From contig JAIEOG010000319.1 in NCBI GenBank assembly GCA_019750655.1, positions 1-28,785 of the forward strand: a stretch of 28,785 bases of DNA, in the 5' to 3' direction. A program made the position numbers and the translations under genes. Source of the stretch: a bacterium (GTDB lineage Bacteria; Bdellovibrionota; FAC87; UBA2466). Below are positions 4,307-13,479 of this stretch, piece after piece. The notes below the pieces were generated by a model. It did not search any database and was not told where the DNA came from. It was given only the letters and a program-made list of their open reading frames with translations. Positions within the stretch are counted from its first letter, which is position 1. Each line of letters begins with the position of its first letter.

Positions 4307-5650
4307 TCAGCGTAATCCCCAGTCGATAACTAAGTGGGAGGGAGAAGCGTTAACCGCCAGCGTGCATGGGCCTACGTCGGCCTGGATGGCTCTGCCGTGT
4401 AAGAGGTACCAGATTTGGCGCACGCCTTCGGCATTGGCGACCACACGTTCGAAGGGAAGATTTGGGTAAGCAGCGCTGTAACAATTGCGGACGGTGATAT
4501 TCTCCAAATCCGAAGGTGCCCTGCGAAGGGTTTCAAAAAACTCCGTTTGCGCGGTTTTCCAGTGCCACCAACCCACCCGATCGAGCCGCCACAGCAGGAA
4601 CCCGACGGAGAGCACCGTGAGCGCCACGCCGAAGCGGGCCACGCGCCTCGCTGGCAACCCCGCCGGAACGCCGCCAAACGCAAAAACCAAAAGCAGCGAC
4701 CAAGTCAGCACGAGGTACCAACCCGGTGAGAAAAACCCATGCCCCAGATAAACGCTCAGCGACGCCGCCAAAAATGGCAGATACGCCAGCCGACGCTTCC
4801 AAGCCGTCCACGCACGCGCGGCCGGACCGCCCATCCCCCACCAAAGCCCCATCGCCAAGACCGTGGGCCCCACGGCCATCACAAAAGAGCGGGCGATACG
4901 CGCCACAGTGTAATGCGGGAGATAGCTTGGATTCACCGGCATCCACCCAAGGCGCGCTACGAGGTAAGCCGCACCCAACACGGCGTACGGCAGAAAAAAC
5001 CGCGCCCGCTGTCCCCAGCTCCAACCCTCAAAGGGTTTCTCCGCAACCAAGATCCCTGCCAGAAGTAAGAGGTGGAACAGGCTCGATTCCTTGAACCCCA
5101 GCGCAAGAACTAGCGCTGCGATACTGGGGAGGATCCACCACCGGTTATCCGCCGCTTTCAGGAACGCCCAGGTGCAAGAGAGCAGCAGCAAGAGCTGCGG
5201 GATGTTCATCATCCCCTCGCCCATCCAAGCGACGCTGCCAAAATGGGCGAGCCAAGAACCACTTGCCGCCGCGACAAACCAAAAGCCCGCTGTCGGAGAA
5301 GCGACTCGCCGCACGCACGCATAGCCCAAGAGCAAAGCGCACGCCGTCGCAAGCACACCAATCGCTATCCAAGCCGCGTACTGGAATCCAAAGAGCTGAA
5401 AGAAAAGATAGGTTCCTAATTTAAAGCCCGGCCGGAAGAACCAAACCAGCGGCTTGCCGTCGTGGTAGAGCTCTGAGCTCCACAGAAAACCAGGTTCAGT
5501 GGGAATATAGCGGACCGCATTTCCGAGAATCCACCAATCGTCGTGGCGAAAAAAAACCGAAGGAACGACCGCCGCAAGATAGATCCCCAGAAAGGCCGCG
5601 GTGAAAACCAAGCTCCAACGCATCTCTCGAGGCATACGGTATTCTACCAC
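4307..5650 (-). CDS. Polytopic membrane protein, putative GT-C-fold glycosyltransferase
   Basis: About 10-11 hydrophobic segments. Acidic DD motif in the first loop (FFRHDDWWIL), an FFRP motif and an LGFKES motif, all typical of GT-C (PMT/ArnT/TMTC-like) enzymes. Confidence 0.6.
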   Translation of the reverse strand: MVEYRMPREMRWSLVFTAAFLGIYLAAVVPSVFFRHDDWWILGNAVRYIPTEPGFLWSSELYHDGKPLVWFFRPGFKLGTYLFFQLFGFQYAAWIAIGVLATACALLLGYACVRRVASPTAGFWFVAAASGSWLAHFGSVAWMGEGMMNIPQLLLLLSCTWAFLKAADNRWWILPSIAALVLALGFKESSLFHLLLLAGILVAEKPFEGWSWGQRARFFLPYAVLGAAYLVARLGWMPVNPSYLPHYTVARIARSFVMAVGPTVLAMGLWWGMGGPAARAWTAWKRRLAYLPFLAASLSVYLGHGFFSPGWYLVLTWSLLLVFAFGGVPAGLPARRVARFGVALTVLSVGFLLWRLDRVGWWHWKTAQTEFFETLRRAPSDLENITVRNCYSAAYPNLPFERVVANAEGVRQIWYLLHGRAIQADVGPCTLAVNASPSHLVIDWGLR

Positions 5651-5914: not shown

Positions 5915-6017
5915 GAGGCTGTTTTAACAAACCCGGGCCTAGACGTAAACAACGGGAATCATAGGCTTTGGATGGCCGGATTTCGTGTTTTCGCGGATTT
6001 CAGGTATAAGGCCGCCC

Positions 6018-6872
6018 ATGCGCCGAGCCTTAGCCCTTCTGAGCCTGATTTGCGGGATAGCCCTACCTTGCGCCTTTGAGATCACGCAGCAAGAAGCCCT
6101 CTTCCAAAGGGGCCTCCAGCACCTAGGGTGGTCGGAAGCCGACTTTGAACGCCAAGTGTCCCTTGCGGTCGACATCAGCGTGGGCCGCCCCGTTTCGACC
6201 GCGGACCTTGTCGAGGAAGAAGACCTAACGGTCGGTGGGGTGCGCGTCAGCGGTGCTATTCTCAATGCCTATGGGGCGCTTTTTAATTCGCTCGCCGCTA
6301 AACAGTTTCCGGCACCGCTTAAGTCGGTAGAAAACAAACTAGTGGTGATCACTCACCAGGATCCCTCTCTCCAAAAGAAGACCGCAGAATGGCTGTCCAA
6401 GTCCAAGCTGCGAGTTCCTGTTGTGGCACTGGTTTCGCCCGTATTTCCTTTGGAGACCACGGATATTGTCGATACCGGCAAAGTCGCCGTCCGATACTCT
6501 GCGGGAGGCGAGCTGCCTGGGATTGCAGCCAAGAAGGTGATTCTTTTAGGAGGGCACTGGAGTGCCTGCTTGCTTTCAACGATTGAAGATCTCGTCGTTT
6601 CGGGTTTCAAACAGGGGCTGAAAAAAGTCGAAATCCAGATCCTCCCCTCCCTCTCCTACACCAACCTTGCTGGTAAATCGCTCGCGGAAATCCACGACAA
6701 ACAAACCACCGCAAACCAAATTCGAAACTCGGTTAAAGAGCTAGAAAAAGCCGTACGCCTGCGCACGATGCACGTCGAAATCGTCGGCAGCCCCTCCGAA
6801 CCGAGCTGGAACAACGTCATCCGCATCACCTCTGGCGAACAGAAAGCGGAAATCCGCTTCGCTGAACTCTGA
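6018..6872 (+). CDS. Hypothetical secreted protein (weak cysteine-hydrolase-like segment)
   Basis: The ORF track starts at 5985; ATG 6018 gives a signal peptide (MRRALALLSLICGIALPCA). Contains KKVILLGGHWSACLLSTIEDL. Confidence 0.65.
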   Translation: MRRALALLSLICGIALPCAFEITQQEALFQRGLQHLGWSEADFERQVSLAVDISVGRPVSTADLVEEEDLTVGGVRVSGAILNAYGALFNSLAAKQFPAPLKSVENKLVVITHQDPSLQKKTAEWLSKSKLRVPVVALVSPVFPLETTDIVDTGKVAVRYSAGGELPGIAAKKVILLGGHWSACLLSTIEDLVVSGFKQGLKKVEIQILPSLSYTNLAGKSLAEIHDKQTTANQIRNSVKELEKAVRLRTMHVEIVGSPSEPSWNNVIRITSGEQKAEIRFAEL

Positions 6873-6876
6873 GCCT

Positions 6877-6891
6877 CTTAAGGTTTCTTAA
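6877..6891 (+). promoter_or_regulatory. CTTAA-N5-CTTAA direct repeat, putative OmpR-family response-regulator box upstream of the methyltransferase-kinase operon
   Basis: CTTAA GGTTT CTTAA (6877-6891), 10-bp period. The same motif occurs upstream of the response regulator. Confidence 0.6.
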
Positions 6892-6933
6892 CTCGCTAGT
6901 TCTCCCACCGGCGAGTTAACTCACAGCCCATCT

Positions 6934-7998
6934 ATGACAGAAAAGCGCGCACCTGAGCCCCTCGACGTGGCCGCTTCTGCACTTCTTAAGCGGCTCAACC
7001 AAGCTGCCCTGGTACCCGCTATTGCTCTGATTGCCGAACTGGAAATCCCCGACCTCTTAGCCGACGGAGAGCAGACAGCCGGCGCGCTCGCCCGCAAGAC
7101 GGGTTCGGATCCCCAGGCCCTTTACCGAATGCTCCGCGCTTTAGCAGCCGACGGGGTATTCGAAGAAAAACCCGGCCGCGTTTTCAAGAACACTGCTCTT
7201 GCCGAGCATCTGCGAAAAAAACACCCGAATTCTTTGCACGGCATTGCCCGCATGGCAGGGGCGTCCTGGAATTGGAATACGTGGGGGCACCTGCCCCATA
7301 GCATCCGCACCGGACAGTCGGCATTTGCGAATCTCCATGGGTGTGGCTTGTTCGAGTTTCTTAAAACATCCCCACCTGCAGCGCGGATCTTCCACGACGC
7401 AATGGGCTCAGGCGCTCGTAGCGCGGCTGCCGACGTGCTTTCCGCTTATGCGTTTGGCGCGCGCCCGCGGCACTTCGTGGATGTCGGTGGCGGAGTTGGA
7501 CACCTGCTCTTCCCACTTCTGGCAACGCACATAGAACACATCGGAACCCTCTTTGATGTCCCGAACGTCGCCCCCGCAGCAGAAGAAGGTATCCGCGCTA
7601 ACGCCCTCGAAACTCGCTGTGCCTTTGTCGGCGGGAACTTTTTCGATCACGTTCCGCCAGGGGCCGACACCTACATTCTGCGCAATATTCTGCACGACTG
7701 GGACGATGAACGCGCTCGGAGGATTCTCGATCGCTGCGCCTCCGCGATGGGCGCGGAAAGTCGATTGATCATTATCGAGCGCGTTTTAGATGTCGGCGGA
7801 CTCGGTGCGCTTCACGACTTACAAATGTTGCTATTGACCTCCGGCGGCAAAGAGCGGACTCTTGCTGAGTTCGAGGAATTACTCGCTGGTGCTGGCCTAA
7901 CCCTCGACGAAACCATATCAACCCCGGCGCAAAGGGTTTTGCTCATCGCCAGAAAATCGCAGAACGGTTTCCATGCAGGATCTTCGACAAGTCCTTAG
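6934..7998 (+). CDS. SAM-dependent O-methyltransferase, class II (dimerisation domain plus Methyltransf_2)
   Basis: N-terminal winged-helix dimerisation region (LEIPDLLADGEQTAGALA...LYRMLRALAADGVF), SAM motif VDVGGGVG, GNFFDHVP, and catalytic ILHDWDD. Confidence 0.93.
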   Translation: MTEKRAPEPLDVAASALLKRLNQAALVPAIALIAELEIPDLLADGEQTAGALARKTGSDPQALYRMLRALAADGVFEEKPGRVFKNTALAEHLRKKHPNSLHGIARMAGASWNWNTWGHLPHSIRTGQSAFANLHGCGLFEFLKTSPPAARIFHDAMGSGARSAAADVLSAYAFGARPRHFVDVGGGVGHLLFPLLATHIEHIGTLFDVPNVAPAAEEGIRANALETRCAFVGGNFFDHVPPGADTYILRNILHDWDDERARRILDRCASAMGAESRLIIIERVLDVGGLGALHDLQMLLLTSGGKERTLAEFEELLAGAGLTLDETISTPAQRVLLIARKSQNGFHAGSSTSP

Positions 7999-9583
7999 TC
8001 CCATTAGCTGGCTCATTGTCATTCTCGGGTTTCACCCGCTCTTCCTAATTCCATTCGAACCAACTCTTAAAGAATACCTCGTTTTAATGGTGGTAGACTC
8101 CACCGCCCTTTTCTTCGCAATGAAGATTGAACTGGCTGCTTTTTTGCGGAAATACCCACCGCCGGTAGAAAACATTTTCGATTTTGATGGCGAGAAGCTT
8201 TCGCGGCTACCCCTAGATCAACGGCGCAAGTTCTACGAGTACTACACGACATTCCCCTCGCGCCGCGCGGCTTTCACCTTGCCTGCAAGCTTCGTCAAAG
8301 CGCTCCCGGGATTTGCAGTGATTGTTTTCTATTGGCACCATGACCAGAGCTACTTCGCCCAGTTCGTGCAAGTTTTACTGGCGGCTTCGGTACCTTGGTT
8401 CTACGTTTTCGGCGCGTCGTTTATTGAAGCACATGCTTTCGTCTCTCGGAAATTCGCCGAGATGCACGAACGCTACGACTGGACAGAAGTTTTTGCAGGC
8501 GTCCGCCTTCCCGATCACCGCCGGGATTTCCGACAACACGAGAACATTTCCATGATCGCCATCGCAGGCTTTGTGATCGCGGTGCAAAGCATCGTGGTCG
8601 CGGGACATGGGCTCGATGGAGTGGAATGGCTGACACTCAAAATCACGATCATCGGTCTATCGGGCATTTGCTTGATGTCACGCATTTGGTATCTCAACCG
8701 CTCTTTCTTCTTGGGCGGTTTGGAATCCATCTTCGCAAAGCTCGCGGCGTTCGACCCACACCAACCTCAAAGAGCCCTGGCCTTGCACACCGCGCCTTTG
8801 CTCGCGCATTTCGAACTCACTTTCAATACGTTGTTGAGCAAACTGCGGGAGTATGAGCAAGAGCTCTCGCATTGGATCTACTCGGAGGCGGAGAAGAACC
8901 GCTTCAAAGCCATCGGGGAAGTCTCGGGGCTTGTGGTGCACGATATCAGCGCACCCCTGCATGTTATGAATTTCTGCGCCGAGAAACTCAAAACGGATCC
9001 CGCACCAGAAGACCGCGCAAAATACATCCACCGTATGCATGAGAGCCTAGGAATGGCGACGGAGCTGGTCGAATCGCTGCGCTCCTGGCTCAAAAACCCA
9101 AACCGTGGTTCCGCTTCGGCTGTGTATTTCGAAGCCCACACGCACGTGCTGAGGCTTTTAGAGTTGCGCTACTACGAAACCCCGGGCACCCAGATCAACT
9201 ACATCATTGATCCGCAAGTGCAGAACTTGAACATCGCGCTCCCTAAGCCGGACTTAATCCACGTCTTGTTCAATCTCTTTTCGAATAGCATTGAGAACCT
9301 ACTCTCCAACAAGACGCCGCAACCGACATTAGAAGTCGTACTGCACGCCCAAGACGCGGGCCGAGCCACCTTGCATGTCCGCGACAATGGATCGGGCTTG
9401 GATGCCGATCGCTTCGAAGAGCTCACCGGCTTTCAAACTTCCCAGAAAAGCCCCACCCGCGATGGATTAGGTTTGCGGCTCATTCGGCGCTTAGTCGAAC
9501 AGTATGGCGGCACCTTGAAGGTGGAACCCGCGCTCAGCCAAGGGACGTTGTTCCGCCTCGAACTTCCATTGAAGGCTAGCTAA
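7973..9583 (+). CDS. Membrane-bound sensor histidine kinase (~6 TM)
   Basis: About 6 hydrophobic segments in the first ~240 aa. H-box GLVVHDISAPL, N-box NLFSNS, G1 DNGSG, G2 GLGLRL. Overlaps the methyltransferase 3' end. Confidence 0.92.
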   Translation: MQDLRQVLSPISWLIVILGFHPLFLIPFEPTLKEYLVLMVVDSTALFFAMKIELAAFLRKYPPPVENIFDFDGEKLSRLPLDQRRKFYEYYTTFPSRRAAFTLPASFVKALPGFAVIVFYWHHDQSYFAQFVQVLLAASVPWFYVFGASFIEAHAFVSRKFAEMHERYDWTEVFAGVRLPDHRRDFRQHENISMIAIAGFVIAVQSIVVAGHGLDGVEWLTLKITIIGLSGICLMSRIWYLNRSFFLGGLESIFAKLAAFDPHQPQRALALHTAPLLAHFELTFNTLLSKLREYEQELSHWIYSEAEKNRFKAIGEVSGLVVHDISAPLHVMNFCAEKLKTDPAPEDRAKYIHRMHESLGMATELVESLRSWLKNPNRGSASAVYFEAHTHVLRLLELRYYETPGTQINYIIDPQVQNLNIALPKPDLIHVLFNLFSNSIENLLSNKTPQPTLEVVLHAQDAGRATLHVRDNGSGLDADRFEELTGFQTSQKSPTRDGLGLRLIRRLVEQYGGTLKVEPALSQGTLFRLELPLKAS

Positions 9584-10481
9584 ACGGGTGGACAGGCCCG
9601 GTCGGCTCCTCAGGTCTCCGGCCGAAGTACAAAGACACAGCCTCTGTACATACCGCCTGTGCAACCACCACATGCCCCTTCAGGCTTTGTGGCGTAATCT
9701 CCCGAAAATGTACCTGCCAGTCAGACCGTTTGCGCTCGCTCCCATGGTACCGCTTGCCCGCTAACCAATCGGTAAGGTGTTGGGTGTTCGGAGGGTAAAG
9801 ATAGTAGGCCTGGTGGTAGTCGGGCGTCGGCGAGAAACTCGGCTCTTCCAACAAGGCCTGTTCCTCCGACAGAAAGCCGTAACCCTGGAGACATTCTCGC
9901 TCGGCAGCATGGAGAGCCGCCGCGAGATGGCCGCGCGCGGCTGTGCCGTAGATGCGGCAGCGGCCTTCTCGGCGTGGCCAGCCAAAAATCCCGACAGTAA
10001 CCGCCTCTTCGCTGAGGCTAGAAAATGCATAAGCCTCAAATGCGTACTCGGATTCGAGCTCTCGGAAAACCCCGCTCGCCACCCAGTCCAACCGCTGGGG
10101 CAGCGTTTCGCCCCTCCACGATCGTAAAAGCCTATCGCGCTCGACCAATTCGTAAAGCGCCGCCTGAGTGGCCCGCGCGTGAGAGCCCCCTAGCGCAACC
10201 CCATTGGACTTCGAAAGCGCCCAGCTGCCTTGCACGGGCGTGGAAGGCTGCTCGAGAATGCTGATCCGTTCGAGAAGTTCGAAGTAGGCTCGCTCCATGG
10301 CCCGCCCTTCTAAGCAGGCGGCACTCCCGTGGGTTGCGAGCCGATCCCCCTGGTGGGCCACCAAACCCGCAAGCTGCAGAACATAAGGGCCACGCTGGAG
10401 GGACCGTTCAAGCACCTCTCCTAAGGCCCAGCCTTCTGGAAGCGGAACCTCTTCGCGTAACGCCTGAAGCTCAGAACTCAT
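9576..10481 (-). CDS. YcaO-like protein (compact, 301 aa)
   Basis: ATP/Mg motifs RAMERAYFELLER and SNGVALG...ALYELVERD, GTAARG...AERECLQ, and the Pro-rich C-terminus GPVHPFS. Start chosen at ATG 10481 (MSSELQ), overlapping the upstream stop. The ORF-track start 10607 lies inside the upstream gene. Confidence 0.82.
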   Translation of the reverse strand: MSSELQALREEVPLPEGWALGEVLERSLQRGPYVLQLAGLVAHQGDRLATHGSAACLEGRAMERAYFELLERISILEQPSTPVQGSWALSKSNGVALGGSHARATQAALYELVERDRLLRSWRGETLPQRLDWVASGVFRELESEYAFEAYAFSSLSEEAVTVGIFGWPRREGRCRIYGTAARGHLAAALHAAERECLQGYGFLSEEQALLEEPSFSPTPDYHQAYYLYPPNTQHLTDWLAGKRYHGSERKRSDWQVHFREITPQSLKGHVVVAQAVCTEAVSLYFGRRPEEPTGPVHPFS

Positions 10482-11130
10482 CGACCTTGCCCACTTCCTC
10501 AAAAAAGCGCTCATAGAGGTGCATCGCCATTTCGAGAGAACTGAGCATTTTCTCAACGGCACAATGGCCTGCCAGCCGATCGAGATCGTGGAGGAGTTCG
10601 GCCGCATGTTCTTTGTCCAACTCCGAGTGGTTTTTCACAACCGTCACGAAGTTTGTAGGCAGATTGCAGGCTTTTTCCAAATCCCGCAGCCATTCGGGCG
10701 ATGCCACTACAGTCAGGTACTCCGCCAAGAATATGTAAGCGAGGTAGAGGGACGGATCTTCCTTGATCAGCGCAAAAACGTAATTCTCCAGGGCTAGGAC
10801 GTAAAACGAGACGCGCCGCTGATCGCGGACATCAAACTTTTCTACTAAGCGTTCCACATCGCGAGCCGCCCAGAGGTCGTGATCGACTTCCTCGTGGATC
10901 TTGGAGGCGAAATAGGCAGCGAGTTCGGGCTCATTGCGCCTTAAGGCTTCTGCCTGCGCCGACTTTAAATGGTGCGGCGTTTTGGCAATCATGTAGTGCA
11001 CGTTATTGAGGTAATGAAAAAGATTGCGCGGCTTGAGCGATCCATTGCGCGTGTTTACGAAAAAAGGCGACTGCTGCGCCTGCAGACTCGCCCACTTGGC
11101 GACTTTCACTTGTAGTAATTGCGATATCAT
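10471..11130 (-). CDS. Heme-oxygenase-like dimetal oxidase (HDO; TenA/PqqC/CADD-like iron-containing redox enzyme)
   Basis: All-helical 219 aa with ligand-type motifs IHEEVDHD, LAEYL and HSELDKEH (H-x3-D-x2-H). ATG 11130 is preceded by GGAG (11140-11137). Confidence 0.85.
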   Translation of the reverse strand: MISQLLQVKVAKWASLQAQQSPFFVNTRNGSLKPRNLFHYLNNVHYMIAKTPHHLKSAQAEALRRNEPELAAYFASKIHEEVDHDLWAARDVERLVEKFDVRDQRRVSFYVLALENYVFALIKEDPSLYLAYIFLAEYLTVVASPEWLRDLEKACNLPTNFVTVVKNHSELDKEHAAELLHDLDRLAGHCAVEKMLSSLEMAMHLYERFFEEVGKVDEF

Positions 11131-11153
11131 AGGCTTCTCCCAAGAAATCCAGC

Positions 11154-11183
11154 GCCGGCCCTCTGGCACACCAGAGAACCGGC
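11154..11183 (-). promoter_or_regulatory. Stem-loop between the small ORF and the HDO gene (mRNA stabiliser/attenuator-like)
   Basis: Minus strand GCCGGTTCTCTGG-TGTG-CCAGAGGGCCGGC: a 13-bp stem (2 G-U pairs) with a 4-nt loop, 10 nt after the small-ORF stop. No U-tract follows. Confidence 0.7.
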
Positions 11184-11193
11184 TTTTCCAGCA

Positions 11194-11226
11194 TTAGATG
11201 CAATACTGCGCGAATTTCTTCATCAT
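11194..11226 (-). CDS. Putative 10-aa precursor peptide MMKKFAQYCI
   Basis: Minus strand: TGA(GNAT stop)AAGGAGG-CCCCC-ATG ATG AAG AAA TTC GCG CAG TAT TGC ATC TAA. A perfect Shine-Dalgarno lies 5 nt (or 8 nt) from the ATG, in the gap between GNAT and HDO, followed by a hairpin. Confidence 0.68.
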   Translation of the reverse strand: MMKKFAQYCI

Positions 11227-11238
11227 GGGGGCCTCCTT

Positions 11239-11856
11239 TCAATGCTGCAGCTGGGGTTTGGTCCCCCAACAAAACTGTTTCAAAAACGCTTCGAGACTCC
11301 GCTGCGTTAGAAATTTCGTGAGACACACATTGGCTCCCCAGCGCTCGGAAAGCTCATAGCCCGTTACGGTGAATCCGAGCTTGGTCAAGATATGGATATT
11401 GGCGAGATTCGCCGGCGAGACATGGGCCTGCGCACGCTCCATCCCCCGCGCCGCGAGCGCCTCCAAAAAGCGAGCGAAAAACTCTTGGAAGTGCCCCTGC
11501 CCTTGGTGTGAGGGCAGAAAGGAAACATGGCGCAGATAGTAAGTGCTCCAATCGAGCGCATTGCCGACGTACACCCCTACCGTGCGGCCCTCGTCGTGGA
11601 AACGGAAGAGATCCGCGTGGCGGCTGTAGAATCCCTCCTTCTCCGCCCAAGATTCCGGCAGGGGCGAAAAACCGCCCTCCGCGATTGAAGCGGCGTAGAT
11701 TTCTTTGAAATGGCGCTGGAAAAACTCTCGGACCGTAGCGATAGATGTCTCTTCGGCTTGAATGCCCCCGCTTAAGCGGCAGGGGAAAAAAGGAGCCCAC
11801 GTGCCGGGATCGGAGTGGGTTGGGTTCTCTCTCATCTCTGAAATCGAGTGAGTCAT
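11239..11856 (-). CDS. GNAT-family N-acyltransferase
   Basis: Motif A FLPSHQGQGHF and motif B VSPANLANIHILTKLGF. ATG preceded by AGGGGG. Confidence 0.85.
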   Translation of the reverse strand: MTHSISEMRENPTHSDPGTWAPFFPCRLSGGIQAEETSIATVREFFQRHFKEIYAASIAEGGFSPLPESWAEKEGFYSRHADLFRFHDEGRTVGVYVGNALDWSTYYLRHVSFLPSHQGQGHFQEFFARFLEALAARGMERAQAHVSPANLANIHILTKLGFTVTGYELSERWGANVCLTKFLTQRSLEAFLKQFCWGTKPQLQH

Positions 11857-11906
11857 ACGGCCCCCTAGTCCCGAGAACTAAACAACGCTAGGGGGGCAAG
11901 TTCGAG

Positions 11907-11941
11907 TTAAGTCCCCTTTTTTTCGGTTAGGAATTATTAAC
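11907..11941 (-). promoter_or_regulatory. Phased CTTAA-like half-sites upstream of the GNAT-peptide-HDO-YcaO operon
   Basis: Minus strand GTTAA (11941-37), CCTAA (11931-27) and CTTAA (11911-07) lie in an exact 10-bp register. CTTAACTCG is shared with 6887-6895. Confidence 0.45.
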
Positions 11942-12668
11942 CGACGCAAGACTGGAGGCGGTAGCTACCACTCGGAAGAAACGCGATTTCGAGTCCGAGC
12001 TCGGAAATCTTTTTGCGCAAGGAAGAAAGGTGGACGTCGAGCGTCTTGGAATCCACCGCGACATCGTTCCAAACGCGTTTCAAGATTTCGTCCCGGCTCA
12101 CTTGGTACCCGGGGGAGGCATGGAAAATCGAAAGGATCTGGAATTCCTTTGCCGTGAGCCGATTCTTCTTCCCATGGGCAATCACATTCAAGGCAATGCT
12201 ATCGAGCTGGAAGAGCGGCTCGGGCGCCGCTTCACCGGCGAGCAACCTTTCGAGCTTCACAATCAACTCCCCCTTCCCAATGGGCTTTGTCAGAAAATCC
12301 CGAGCGCCAAGCTCAAAGCAGCTCCGCAGGGTATCTAGGTCGTCGACTGAGGAGAGAACAACAAAGGGAATTCCCGCTATCCGGGCCGCGCTATGGGGGC
12401 CTTTTAGAAATTGCAGGAAGGATTCTCCCGGGAGGCGCAGATCCGCTAAAAGCAGGTCGGGCCGGGGGCGAGTCTCTAAGGCGCTACAGAACTCCTCTAC
12501 CGACTGGAGGAATGTCAGGCTGTACCGTAAGGCGAGGACCTCTTCGTACACAAAGCGTACGCCGGGGTCGTCTTCGATAATCCAGATGGATTTGGAAGTA
12601 TGTCCGTTCACGCGCCCGCCTGAGGAAAAGGTTGGGCGCAAACTACTCCGCGCCAGGGTCTTCATCAA
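11937..12668 (-). CDS. OmpR/PhoB-family response regulator
   Basis: Receiver (IIEDD, LLLADLRLPG, DFLTKP) plus winged helix (LTAKEFQIL...SRDEILKRVW...TLDVHLSSLRKKI). The true start may be GTG 12611. Confidence 0.93.
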   Translation of the reverse strand: MMKTLARSSLRPTFSSGGRVNGHTSKSIWIIEDDPGVRFVYEEVLALRYSLTFLQSVEEFCSALETRPRPDLLLADLRLPGESFLQFLKGPHSAARIAGIPFVVLSSVDDLDTLRSCFELGARDFLTKPIGKGELIVKLERLLAGEAAPEPLFQLDSIALNVIAHGKKNRLTAKEFQILSIFHASPGYQVSRDEILKRVWNDVAVDSKTLDVHLSSLRKKISELGLEIAFLPSGSYRLQSCVG

Positions 12669-12679
12669 GCCCGGCGCGG

Positions 12680-12694
12680 TTAAGACTTTTTAAG
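12680..12694 (-). promoter_or_regulatory. CTTAA-N5-CTTAA direct repeat upstream of the response regulator (autoregulation candidate)
   Basis: Minus strand CTTAA AAAGT CTTAA (12694-12680), in the 43-nt intergenic gap. Confidence 0.6.
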
Positions 12695-12711
12695 CAGAAT
12701 CAGACGACGGA

Positions 12712-13479
12712 TTAGTGCTTCACAGCGGCTTTAGCCGGAGTCGCTTTCACAGCAGTACCGGGCTTAGCCGTCGAATGAGCCGACGTCGGGGTGCGGTTGC
12801 CCGTCGGAGGTGTGATACCCGGCTTCTGGCCAGGGACCGGAAGGGTTCCCGCTGCACGCACTGCCGGCGGAGGCGCCGTCACGGGGCGTTCCGTCACAAC
12901 GGCCACCAAGGTTTCGCCCTTGTCGCCCTTTTGGTTATAAAGGGAAACTTTATTGCCCCGGCTATTCCATTGCGTATAGACCAAGCCCCCTTTGGAGCAG
13001 CTTAAGCCATACTGAGAGTGGACCATCGGAGACAATTCTTTGCAATTCGCTGGGCCACTCGTTTCGGGAGTTCCCAAAATCGTGCTAGCCCGTGTCCCGT
13101 AACCTTCTACGAGTTTTTCCTGCTCGCCCATGAAAGCTTCGACGCGGGCAACGACACCAAACTTGGTCGTCACTTCAATTTGTTTAAAGAGAGGGCTAAC
13201 AGCAGCGCACTTGTACGTTTGCTCATCGCCCTTCGCGTGGCCAGGCTCGCACTTTTTAAAGGCGGGCAAAGTTTTCAGACGCTCTTCCTTCAAGCCGAGT
13301 GGGAATTGCACGATGAACATGGGTTGCGCCGTCGGGCGCTTCCCCAAGCCGCGTGTCAGCGACCCTTTCAGCTTTGGAGAGAAGTAAAACCCAGCGGCCA
13401 CACCGACAATCGCGACGAAAGCTGCTGCTGCCAAAGTTAGTTTTGCAAAACCAGACTGGTTCAAGGCTTTGATTTTCAT
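12712..13479 (-). CDS. Hypothetical membrane-anchored protein with prepilin-like N-terminus and Pro/Thr/Ala/Lys-rich tail
   Basis: MKIKALNQSG|FAKLTLAAAAFVAIVGVAAGFYF, several Cys, and a low-complexity C-terminus (TAPPPAV...TAKPGTAVKATPAKAAVKH). Confidence 0.75.
   Translation of the reverse strand: MKIKALNQSGFAKLTLAAAAFVAIVGVAAGFYFSPKLKGSLTRGLGKRPTAQPMFIVQFPLGLKEERLKTLPAFKKCEPGHAKGDEQTYKCAAVSPLFKQIEVTTKFGVVARVEAFMGEQEKLVEGYGTRASTILGTPETSGPANCKELSPMVHSQYGLSCSKGGLVYTQWNSRGNKVSLYNQKGDKGETLVAVVTERPVTAPPPAVRAAGTLPVPGQKPGITPPTGNRTPTSAHSTAKPGTAVKATPAKAAVKH

Follow-up and report, generated by a model that had tools for sequence, protein, structure and literature searches.

A conserved tandem-hexamer element in a small-peptide modification cluster and its probable recognition by the adjacent OmpR/PhoB-type regulator

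Introduction

Do the short boxes between the genes of a small-peptide modification cluster belong to a single regulatory element, and if so, which protein binds it? The question is raised by a 28,785-nt stretch of DNA (the window; contig JAIEOG010000319.1 of NCBI GenBank assembly GCA_019750655.1, from a bacterium of the Bdellovibrionota, lineage FAC87, UBA2466). Here, a methyltransferase gene and a histidine kinase gene on the + strand are accompanied, on the - strand, by genes for a GNAT protein, a 10-codon peptide, a heme-oxygenase-like protein, a YcaO protein and a response regulator of the OmpR/PhoB family. Regulators of this family recognise hexamers that are repeated in tandem at roughly one helical turn. 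An original prediction, made from the letters of the window, held that CTTAA-N5-CTTAA boxes mark all three promoters of the cluster, and that the adjacent regulator controls itself, the kinase operon and the biosynthetic operon. Its gene calls agree with ours (Table 1). We consider it probable that the boxes are instances of a conserved regulator element, bound by the adjacent regulator and controlling the cluster. Control of the regulator's own gene and of the biosynthetic operon finds support in conserved sites, while for the kinase operon the case for control is the weakest of the three.

The exact pattern is rare in the window and in the genome

The window contains two exact matches to CTTAA-N5-CTTAA, CTTAAGGTTTCTTAA at 6877-6891 on the + strand and CTTAAAAAGTCTTAA at 12694-12680 on the - strand. 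These are its sole matches, located exactly where they had been predicted, and the sites around them are referred to as box 1 and box 2. The chance expectation for the pattern in the window is 0.05 copies, close to an earlier rough estimate of 0.02, and at least two copies arose in 0 of 100 dinucleotide shuffles. The assembly as a whole comprises 3.25 Mb in 453 contigs, of which the window is contig C453. Over this genome, the exact pattern has five matches at four loci, with about two expected from the frequency of CTTAA, and a spacing of six (CTTAA-N6-CTTAA) occurs a single time. Such a genome-wide scan had been proposed as a check on the boxes, and it finds a motif that is not common and is not dispersed as a genomic repeat. 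Two of the four loci are box 1 and box 2. The remaining two lie in a 20-nt gap between two open reading frames (ORFs; C179:592) and within an ORF (C385:8616). Both have GC-rich spacers and low scores with the extended matrix described below, and were judged to be chance matches rather than regulon sites.

Upstream of the GNAT gene, the half-sites reported in a 10-bp register are also present, with GTTAA at 11941-11937, CCTAA at 11931-11927 and CTTAA at 11911-11907 on the - strand (offsets 0, 10 and 30). Likewise, the 3′ extensions described for the half-sites match the sequence, CTTAACTCG occurring twice (6887-6895 and 11911-11903) and CTTAACCG (12684-12677) and CCTAACCG (11931-11924) once each.

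De novo discovery of the element in orthologous clusters

No close relatives with the cluster were found. A single-protein scan of genome contigs with the kinase was empty, no kinase orthologue turned up in the six same-genus genomes searched, and among 5.8 billion proteins the best homologues of the kinase share 40% identity with it. Because intergenic DNA is not alignable without a close relative, we used motif discovery rather than footprint alignment. For this, about 14 distant versions of the cluster were gathered from genomes and metagenomes, with proteins 30-52% identical. In the usual layout, a kinase-regulator operon converges on the GNAT, peptide, heme-oxygenase-like and YcaO genes. 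A methyltransferase gene ahead of the kinase and a regulator gene relocated beside GNAT are found only in the window. As this layout is unique among the ~14 loci and the same-genus genomes searched yielded no kinase orthologue, the cluster looks accessory and rearranged. The expected gene order is seen on the contigs for P0004 and P0017; on that for P0008, the kinase and regulator genes precede a truncated gene on the other strand. A search for the rest of the L013 cluster (genome G015, 73% complete) with the heme-oxygenase-like protein did not recover it.

When one mismatch to the predicted pattern was allowed, matches appeared in the regions upstream of GNAT/peptide in L015 and L024, and the spacers agreed as well. 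A Gibbs sampler was then given 16 upstream regions of orthologous clusters, the window being excluded. It converged on AGTTAAG-AAA(A/T)-CTTAAG in seven regions of five loci (L015 and L028 twice each, and L024, L025 and L026). This motif is longer than CTTAA-N5-CTTAA: it spans 16-17 bp and consists of two near-palindromic TTAAG-type hexamers separated by a 4-bp A-rich spacer, which results in a 10-bp period. With locus-specific backgrounds, the seven sites score 20-24 bits, and the rest of those loci reaches at most 14 bits. All seven are directed at the downstream gene, be it in the GNAT/peptide operon, in the operon of kinase and regulator, or for an accessory kinase; four lie 63-136 nt from the start, the others at 152, 153 and 435 nt. 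Upstream of the L028 regulator-kinase operon (5180-5250, +), about five TTAA-type half-sites are phased at 10 bp.

Together with the held-out loci described below, the motif is found upstream of the GNAT/peptide operon in L015, L024, L025, L028, L036 and L042, and upstream of regulator and/or kinase genes in L026, L028 and L036. Sites before the GNAT operon and before the regulator and kinase genes would be expected if the regulator acted on its own gene as well as on the biosynthetic operon. Conservation in orthologous clusters, a check likewise set out by the original prediction, is thus borne out at equivalent promoters. In all 15 sites (three in the window and 12 in eight other loci), the hexamers keep a 10-bp period and a 4-bp spacer, in line with the earlier reading of the boxes as OmpR/PhoB-style repeats spaced by 10-11 bp.

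These sites also bear on whether the boxes are regulatory at all. They could instead be chance AT-rich words, parts of terminator hairpins, or the terminal inverted repeats of a 5.8 kb cassette. The two exact boxes lie 4-16 nt past the flanking stop codons and face each other, and the lack of a kinase orthologue in the same-genus genomes searched fits an acquired island. Moreover, a stable hairpin follows each exact box. In the hairpin after box 1 (6888-6919), the 5′ arm is the second half-site and the 3′ arm holds a third, inverted GTTAAC hexamer (-18 kcal/mol, z = -2.65, with one of 200 shuffles folding equally well); the hairpin after box 2 has z = -2.19. However, neither hairpin has a U-tract, no inverted repeat spanning the boxes is among the 25 longest in 6700-12900, and the two L015 copies are in direct orientation. 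Above all, the motif in the eight other loci lies at internal, gene-proximal positions with unrelated flanks, usually directed at a start codon. These internal sites, together with the rarity in the genome, effectively exclude the chance, terminator and terminal-repeat readings, and we regard a non-regulatory origin as very improbable. Conversely, given the recurrence of the motif, we are highly confident, as far as sequence comparison goes, that the boxes represent a genuine cis-element conserved within this family of clusters.

Cross-validation of the matrix

A matrix built from the seven foreign sites only was scanned over the whole genome (6.5 million positions). Box 1 obtained the top score of the genome (24.2 bits, with a runner-up at 19.5), and box 2 (15.5 bits, about rank 22) and the site before the GNAT operon (15.2 bits, about rank 25) are within the top ~25 positions. 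Accordingly, each of the cluster's three intergenic gaps, together ~184 bp, contains a match at a threshold that is reached by ~25 sites in 3.25 Mb.

Three loci fetched after the matrix was built (L036, L041 and L042) were held out and scanned at a threshold of 12 bits. In L036, a match of 27.6 bits (23.3 when scored against the base composition of that locus) lies 82 nt ahead of the regulator orthologue, and one of 21.8 bits (17.0) lies 78 nt ahead of GNAT. L042 has a 19.6-bit match 100 nt upstream of GNAT and a 13.1-bit match upstream of an accessory kinase, and the top match of L041, at 16.6 bits, is placed 95 nt before an accessory kinase gene. In the held-out sequence (~57 kb including the window), seven of the eight matches of at least 15 bits fall within the ~2% that is upstream DNA of the cluster.

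The three sites of the window

Box 2 scores 15.5 bits on the - strand versus 13.6 on the + strand. It lies 14 nt before ATG 12665 and 67 nt before GTG 12611. We take the latter as the probable true start of the regulator, because 5-8 residues precede the IW(I/V)xEDD motif in regulator orthologues and because the hairpin right after box 2 (12677-12644, -) encloses the alternative ATG/TTG starts at 12665/12668 in its loop. The GNAT-operon site overlaps the regulator stop codon (11937-11939), lies 69 nt ahead of the GNAT ATG at 11856, scores equally on both strands, and matches the GNAT-operon site of L028 at 13 of 16 positions. Box 2 and the palindromic GNAT site are both directed at the downstream gene, as are all 12 orthologous sites. 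Box 1 sits between the 295-aa gene, whose stop codon is 4 nt away, and ATG 6934, which is 41 nt away. It adopts the family-motif orientation on the - strand (AGTTAAGAAACCTTAAG), directed away from the methyltransferase gene.

The methyltransferase and kinase genes overlap by 26 nt, and hence presumably form one operon downstream of box 1. The GNAT, peptide, heme-oxygenase-like and YcaO genes (9576-11856, -) are the presumed target operon. Weak homologues of the 295-aa and 255-aa flanking genes occur in relatives, so both ORFs are real genes on their strands.

Directly before the GNAT ATG, an 8-bp stem (CCCCCTAG...CTAGGGGG, 11895-11861, -) holds the sole purine run resembling a Shine-Dalgarno (SD) sequence in its 3′ arm. 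The stem may therefore mask the GNAT ribosome-binding site; taken as a whole, the region folds no better than shuffles do (z = -0.19).

The adjacent regulator as the presumed binder

The regulator has receiver and winged-helix domains (Pfam Response_reg, 3e-13; Trans_reg_C, 3e-15). Its best NCBIfam match is PhoB (82 bits, below cutoff), and its best solved relative is BaeR (4b09). The phospho-acceptor Asp, the Ser/Thr and Lys residues and the KTLDVHLxxLRKK helix are conserved in eight regulator orthologues, and across the motif-bearing loci the recognition helix is invariant as K-x-x-D-V-H-L-x-x-L-R-x-K. Each motif-bearing locus encodes a regulator orthologue that is 42-52% identical to that of the window, and only weak matches or none occur where identity falls to 38-39% (L014, L023). 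In L019, no match of at least 12 bits was found, nor was a regulator orthologue detected, with a putative regulator-like ORF lying beside GNAT. The same scan found no match in L027, whose contig has no called OmpR-type regulator and has a gene for a sigma-54-type activator close by, or in L043, which has a regulator homologue without the cluster. Half-sites repeated at 10-11 bp, a regulator gene close by and sites conserved at equivalent promoters, as expected of an OmpR/PhoB operator, are all found here.

Alternatively, the element could be real yet bound by another protein, encoded elsewhere or partnering with an accessory kinase. Extra signalling genes do lie beside some motif copies (soluble kinase-like genes in L015, L041 and L042; in L025, a gene for a receiver-like protein of 136 aa), and L023 has the same recognition helix without any match of at least 12 bits. 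Against this, the OmpR-type regulator orthologue is the sole DNA-binding protein common to all motif-bearing loci, tandem hexamers at a 10-bp period are a signature of OmpR/PhoB regulators, and the match-free L019, L027 and L043 have no detected regulator orthologue or no cluster. We therefore consider another binder quite unlikely. The co-occurrence of motif and regulator orthologues makes the adjacent regulator the probable one.

If so, the kinase would phosphorylate the regulator, a dimer of which would bind the tandem hexamers head-to-tail. Binding to the site at 11926-11942 would control transcription of the biosynthetic operon, binding at box 2 would control the regulator's own gene, and binding at box 1 would probably control the methyltransferase-kinase operon, resulting in a self-reinforcing regulon. 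By analogy with the regulator family, the sign of control is more likely to be activation than repression.

The accessory kinase-like genes mentioned above encode additional soluble proteins (310-370 aa, HATPase_c) that occur beside the membrane kinase: L015 953-1885 (+), L041 747-1853 (-), L042 6846-7919 (-) and L014 4656-5765 (-). The motif copy before them is strong in L015, moderate in L041 and weak in L042 and L014. A reading of these genes as one orthologous family was discarded, as they are only loosely related to each other. The window cluster has no equivalent, and their best homologue in the genome is on contig C136, a contig that is absent from the 30 highest matrix matches.

Observations that speak against the proposed regulon

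Several observations count against the regulon as outlined. Box 1 scores 24.2 bits on the - strand versus 6.3 on the + strand, so that it faces away from the methyltransferase-kinase operon, and its A-rich spacer is directed into the 3′ end of the 295-aa gene. Its distance of 41 nt to the ATG is unlike that of all 12 orthologous sites, typically 63-100 nt. Box 2 and the GNAT-operon site are moderate matches only (15 bits). The positions of the promoters themselves are inferred: a scan for sigma-70-like promoters over 6700-13000 gave 0 matches, and no -10 element was found at a fixed offset from 13 sites, with loose TAnnnT words scattered at offsets 20-35. No RNA runs were listed for 6500-13000, the four runs covering it being DNA runs from one drinking-water metagenome study. 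Among the related loci, L023 and L013 have no match of at least 12 bits despite a regulator orthologue (L013 being without its GNAT side), and L014 has weak matches only (13-14 bits). In addition, a 20.7-bit match lies out of context inside the EPSP synthase gene of L042 (914-898, -). The matrix is therefore not free of false positives; this match is probably one, and serves as a warning about specificity in AT-richer genomes. Finally, the hexamers are near-palindromic (CTTAAG; GTTAAG...CTTAAC in L036) and asymmetry resides only in the A-rich spacer and the flanks, which makes direct-repeat and inverted-repeat readings indistinguishable from sequence.

It is the reversed orientation and the 41-nt distance of box 1 that make control of the kinase operon the weakest link. 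The dimer could possibly bind either way, the methyltransferase might start later (e.g. at GTG 6967), or box 1 might be a relic of the rearrangement unique to this genome. Box 1 may even not be a promoter element of the methyltransferase-kinase operon, with box 2 and the GNAT site still functional. It could be a relic of the separation of kinase and regulator, work in its canonical direction to drive antisense or non-coding transcription into the 295-aa gene's 3′ end, or function as a roadblock. Besides orientation and distance, the rearranged layout seen only in the window would fit this, as would the lack of any SD-like sequence before ATG 6934. On the other hand, no copy in the genome is as well preserved as box 1, which speaks for selection, and near-palindromic hexamers may let a dimer bind either way. 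Furthermore, the kinase/regulator operons of L026 and L028 carry an upstream site, no - strand gene lies downstream of box 1 in the canonical direction, and the 295-aa ORF, whose weak homologues were noted above, is on the + strand. On balance, we find it rather unlikely that box 1 lacks a role at the methyltransferase-kinase operon, and retain a probable action there.

Comparison with known operators

The PmrA box of Salmonella and Klebsiella consists of CTTAAG/xTTAAT hexamers 5 bp apart, bound head-to-tail by a member of the OmpR/PhoB family, and Klebsiella PmrA binds a 4-bp-spaced candidate more weakly than the 5-bp box (PMC3973317). The box replaces the -35 element (PMC10570014). The hexamers of the window and its relatives (CTTAAG, GTTAAG, GTTAAT, CTTAAC and CCTAAC) are nearly identical to those of PmrA (YTTAAK), and they share with them the tandem arrangement at about one helical turn, a presumed OmpR/PhoB-type binder and promoter-proximal sites. 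The GNAT site of the window, GTTAAT-AATT-CCTAAC, has one base fewer than the pbgP box CTTAAT-ATTAT-CCTAAG. In contrast to the 5-bp spacer (11-bp period) of PmrA boxes, the spacer here is 4 bp (10-bp period) and a conserved A-rich AAA[A/T]. The regulator is also not a PmrA orthologue: the NCBIfam model PRK10643 (PmrA) gives 48 bits against a cutoff of 330, and PmrA structures are absent among its PDB matches at 1e-10 or better. Moreover, its presumed targets are a peptide-modification operon and two-component genes rather than lipopolysaccharide-modification genes. The analogy to PmrA/BasR/QseB boxes drawn by the original prediction hence applies to the hexamer sequence, but not to the spacing or to the orthology of the regulator.

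The cluster can also be compared with the NisRK and SpaRK lantibiotic circuits, in which an OmpR-family regulator and a kinase are encoded in a cluster for a ribosomally synthesized and post-translationally modified peptide (RiPP), with direct repeats upstream of the precursor operon. As in those circuits, a two-component system lies inside a small-peptide cluster, with repeat boxes before the peptide operon. The box sequences are unrelated, however, and here the regulator and kinase genes also carry a box. The peptide has 10 codons and no leader, and the enzymes are a GNAT protein, a heme-oxygenase-like protein and YcaO.

Similarly to the pho box of PhoB and the F/C boxes of OmpR, the element has at least two tandem half-sites at 10-11 bp, and the phased half-sites of L028 resemble multi-dimer OmpR sites. 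It differs from both in half-site sequence and in the near-palindromic half-sites. Overall, the element fits the generic OmpR/PhoB class of operators with tandem half-sites and is conventional as a regulatory principle.

Features of the window and of related loci

Table 1. Genes and sites of the window, 10-codon ORFs of related loci, and the seven motif sites found by de novo discovery
Locus	Feature	Position	Strand	Remarks
Window	295-aa gene	5985-6872	+	no family
Window	Box 1	6876-6892	family motif reads on -	
Window	Inverted repeat/hairpin TTAACTCGC-N14-GCGAGTTAA	6888-6919	+	after box 1
Window	O-methyltransferase	6934-7998	+	Pfam Methyltransf_2, 3e-40
Window	Histidine kinase, ~6 transmembrane segments	7973-9583	+	HATPase_c, 5e-18, and HATPase_c_5
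Window	YcaO	9576-10607	-	Pfam
Window	Heme-oxygenase-like protein	10471-11169	-	Pfam
Window	10-codon peptide ORF (MMKKFAQYCI)	11226-11194	-	
Window	GNAT	11239-11856	-	Pfam
Window	Third half-site CTTAA(CTCG)	11907-11911	-	two helical turns downstream of GNAT site; outside conserved 17-mer
Window	GNAT-operon site GGTTAATAATTCCTAAC	11926-11942	-	near-palindromic
Window	OmpR/PhoB-family response regulator	11937-12668 (longest ORF); 11937-12611 (from GTG)	-	Pfam; receiver + winged helix
Window	Box 2 GCTTAAAAAGTCTTAAC	12679-12695	-	16 nt past stop of 255-aa gene
Window	255-aa gene	12712-13479	-	no family
L014	10-codon ORF	10726	-	
L015	10-codon ORF	2039	+	
L018	10-codon ORF	150		
L019	10-codon ORF	7662		
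L020	10-codon ORF	113		
L023	10-codon ORF	9863		
L024	10-codon ORF	10653 and 10576	-	
L025	10-codon ORF	4950	-	
L028	10-codon ORF	9995	-	
L036	10-codon ORF	1243	+	
L015	Site before peptide operon			152 nt to start
L015	Site before soluble kinase-like gene			136 nt to start
L024	Site before GNAT			95 nt to start
L028	Site before GNAT			153 nt to start
L028	Site before regulator-kinase operon			435 nt to start
L025	Site before receiver-like gene (136-aa), then GNAT			64 nt to start
L026	Site before kinase			63 nt to start

The peptide gene and what the regulon may mean

The 10-codon ORF between the GNAT and heme-oxygenase-like genes is conserved in 11 loci (Table 1), and the gene order of the operon likewise recurs in the related loci. 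The encoded peptides include MMKKFAQYCI, MRRKFALYSF, MRKKFAMPCF, MKKFAQYCL, MKKFALACF and MKKRFATGCF, and L024 carries two identical copies of the gene. This conservation is strong support for a real precursor-like gene.

We can tentatively imagine, and hold to be conceivable though doubtful, that the boxes close a pheromone-like positive-feedback loop; Bdellovibrionota-like bacteria would then possess a RiPP autoinducer system of an undescribed kind. In it, the GNAT protein, the heme-oxygenase-like protein, YcaO and perhaps the methyltransferase would modify the leaderless 10-aa peptide (M-x-K-K-F-A-x-x-C/S-hydrophobic). The resulting product would be sensed by the polytopic kinase, which has about six hydrophobic segments at residues 8-238 by hydropathy, and the regulator, acting at the TTAAG-N4-TTAAG boxes, would turn on production of the peptide together with the genes for its own signalling. 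That the kinase senses the product is purely conjectural.

Independently of that idea, an anonymous cluster is turned into a testable regulon, with a 17-bp operator, three sites here and 12 in eight other loci, and a candidate regulator. It predicts autoregulation and control of an operon that modifies a tiny peptide. The motif could also help to find further regulon members and to activate the otherwise silent cluster, e.g. by means of a phospho-mimetic regulator, so that its product can be identified.

Outside the cluster, the best intergenic match in the genome is a near-palindromic copy at C262:3757-3774 (L037), TTTTAAGAAATCTTAAC, which scores 19.2 and 16.9 bits and lies in a 78-nt gap between ruvB and a gene for an fn3-domain protein of more than 840 aa. 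By its sequence, this site is a candidate extra member of the regulon.

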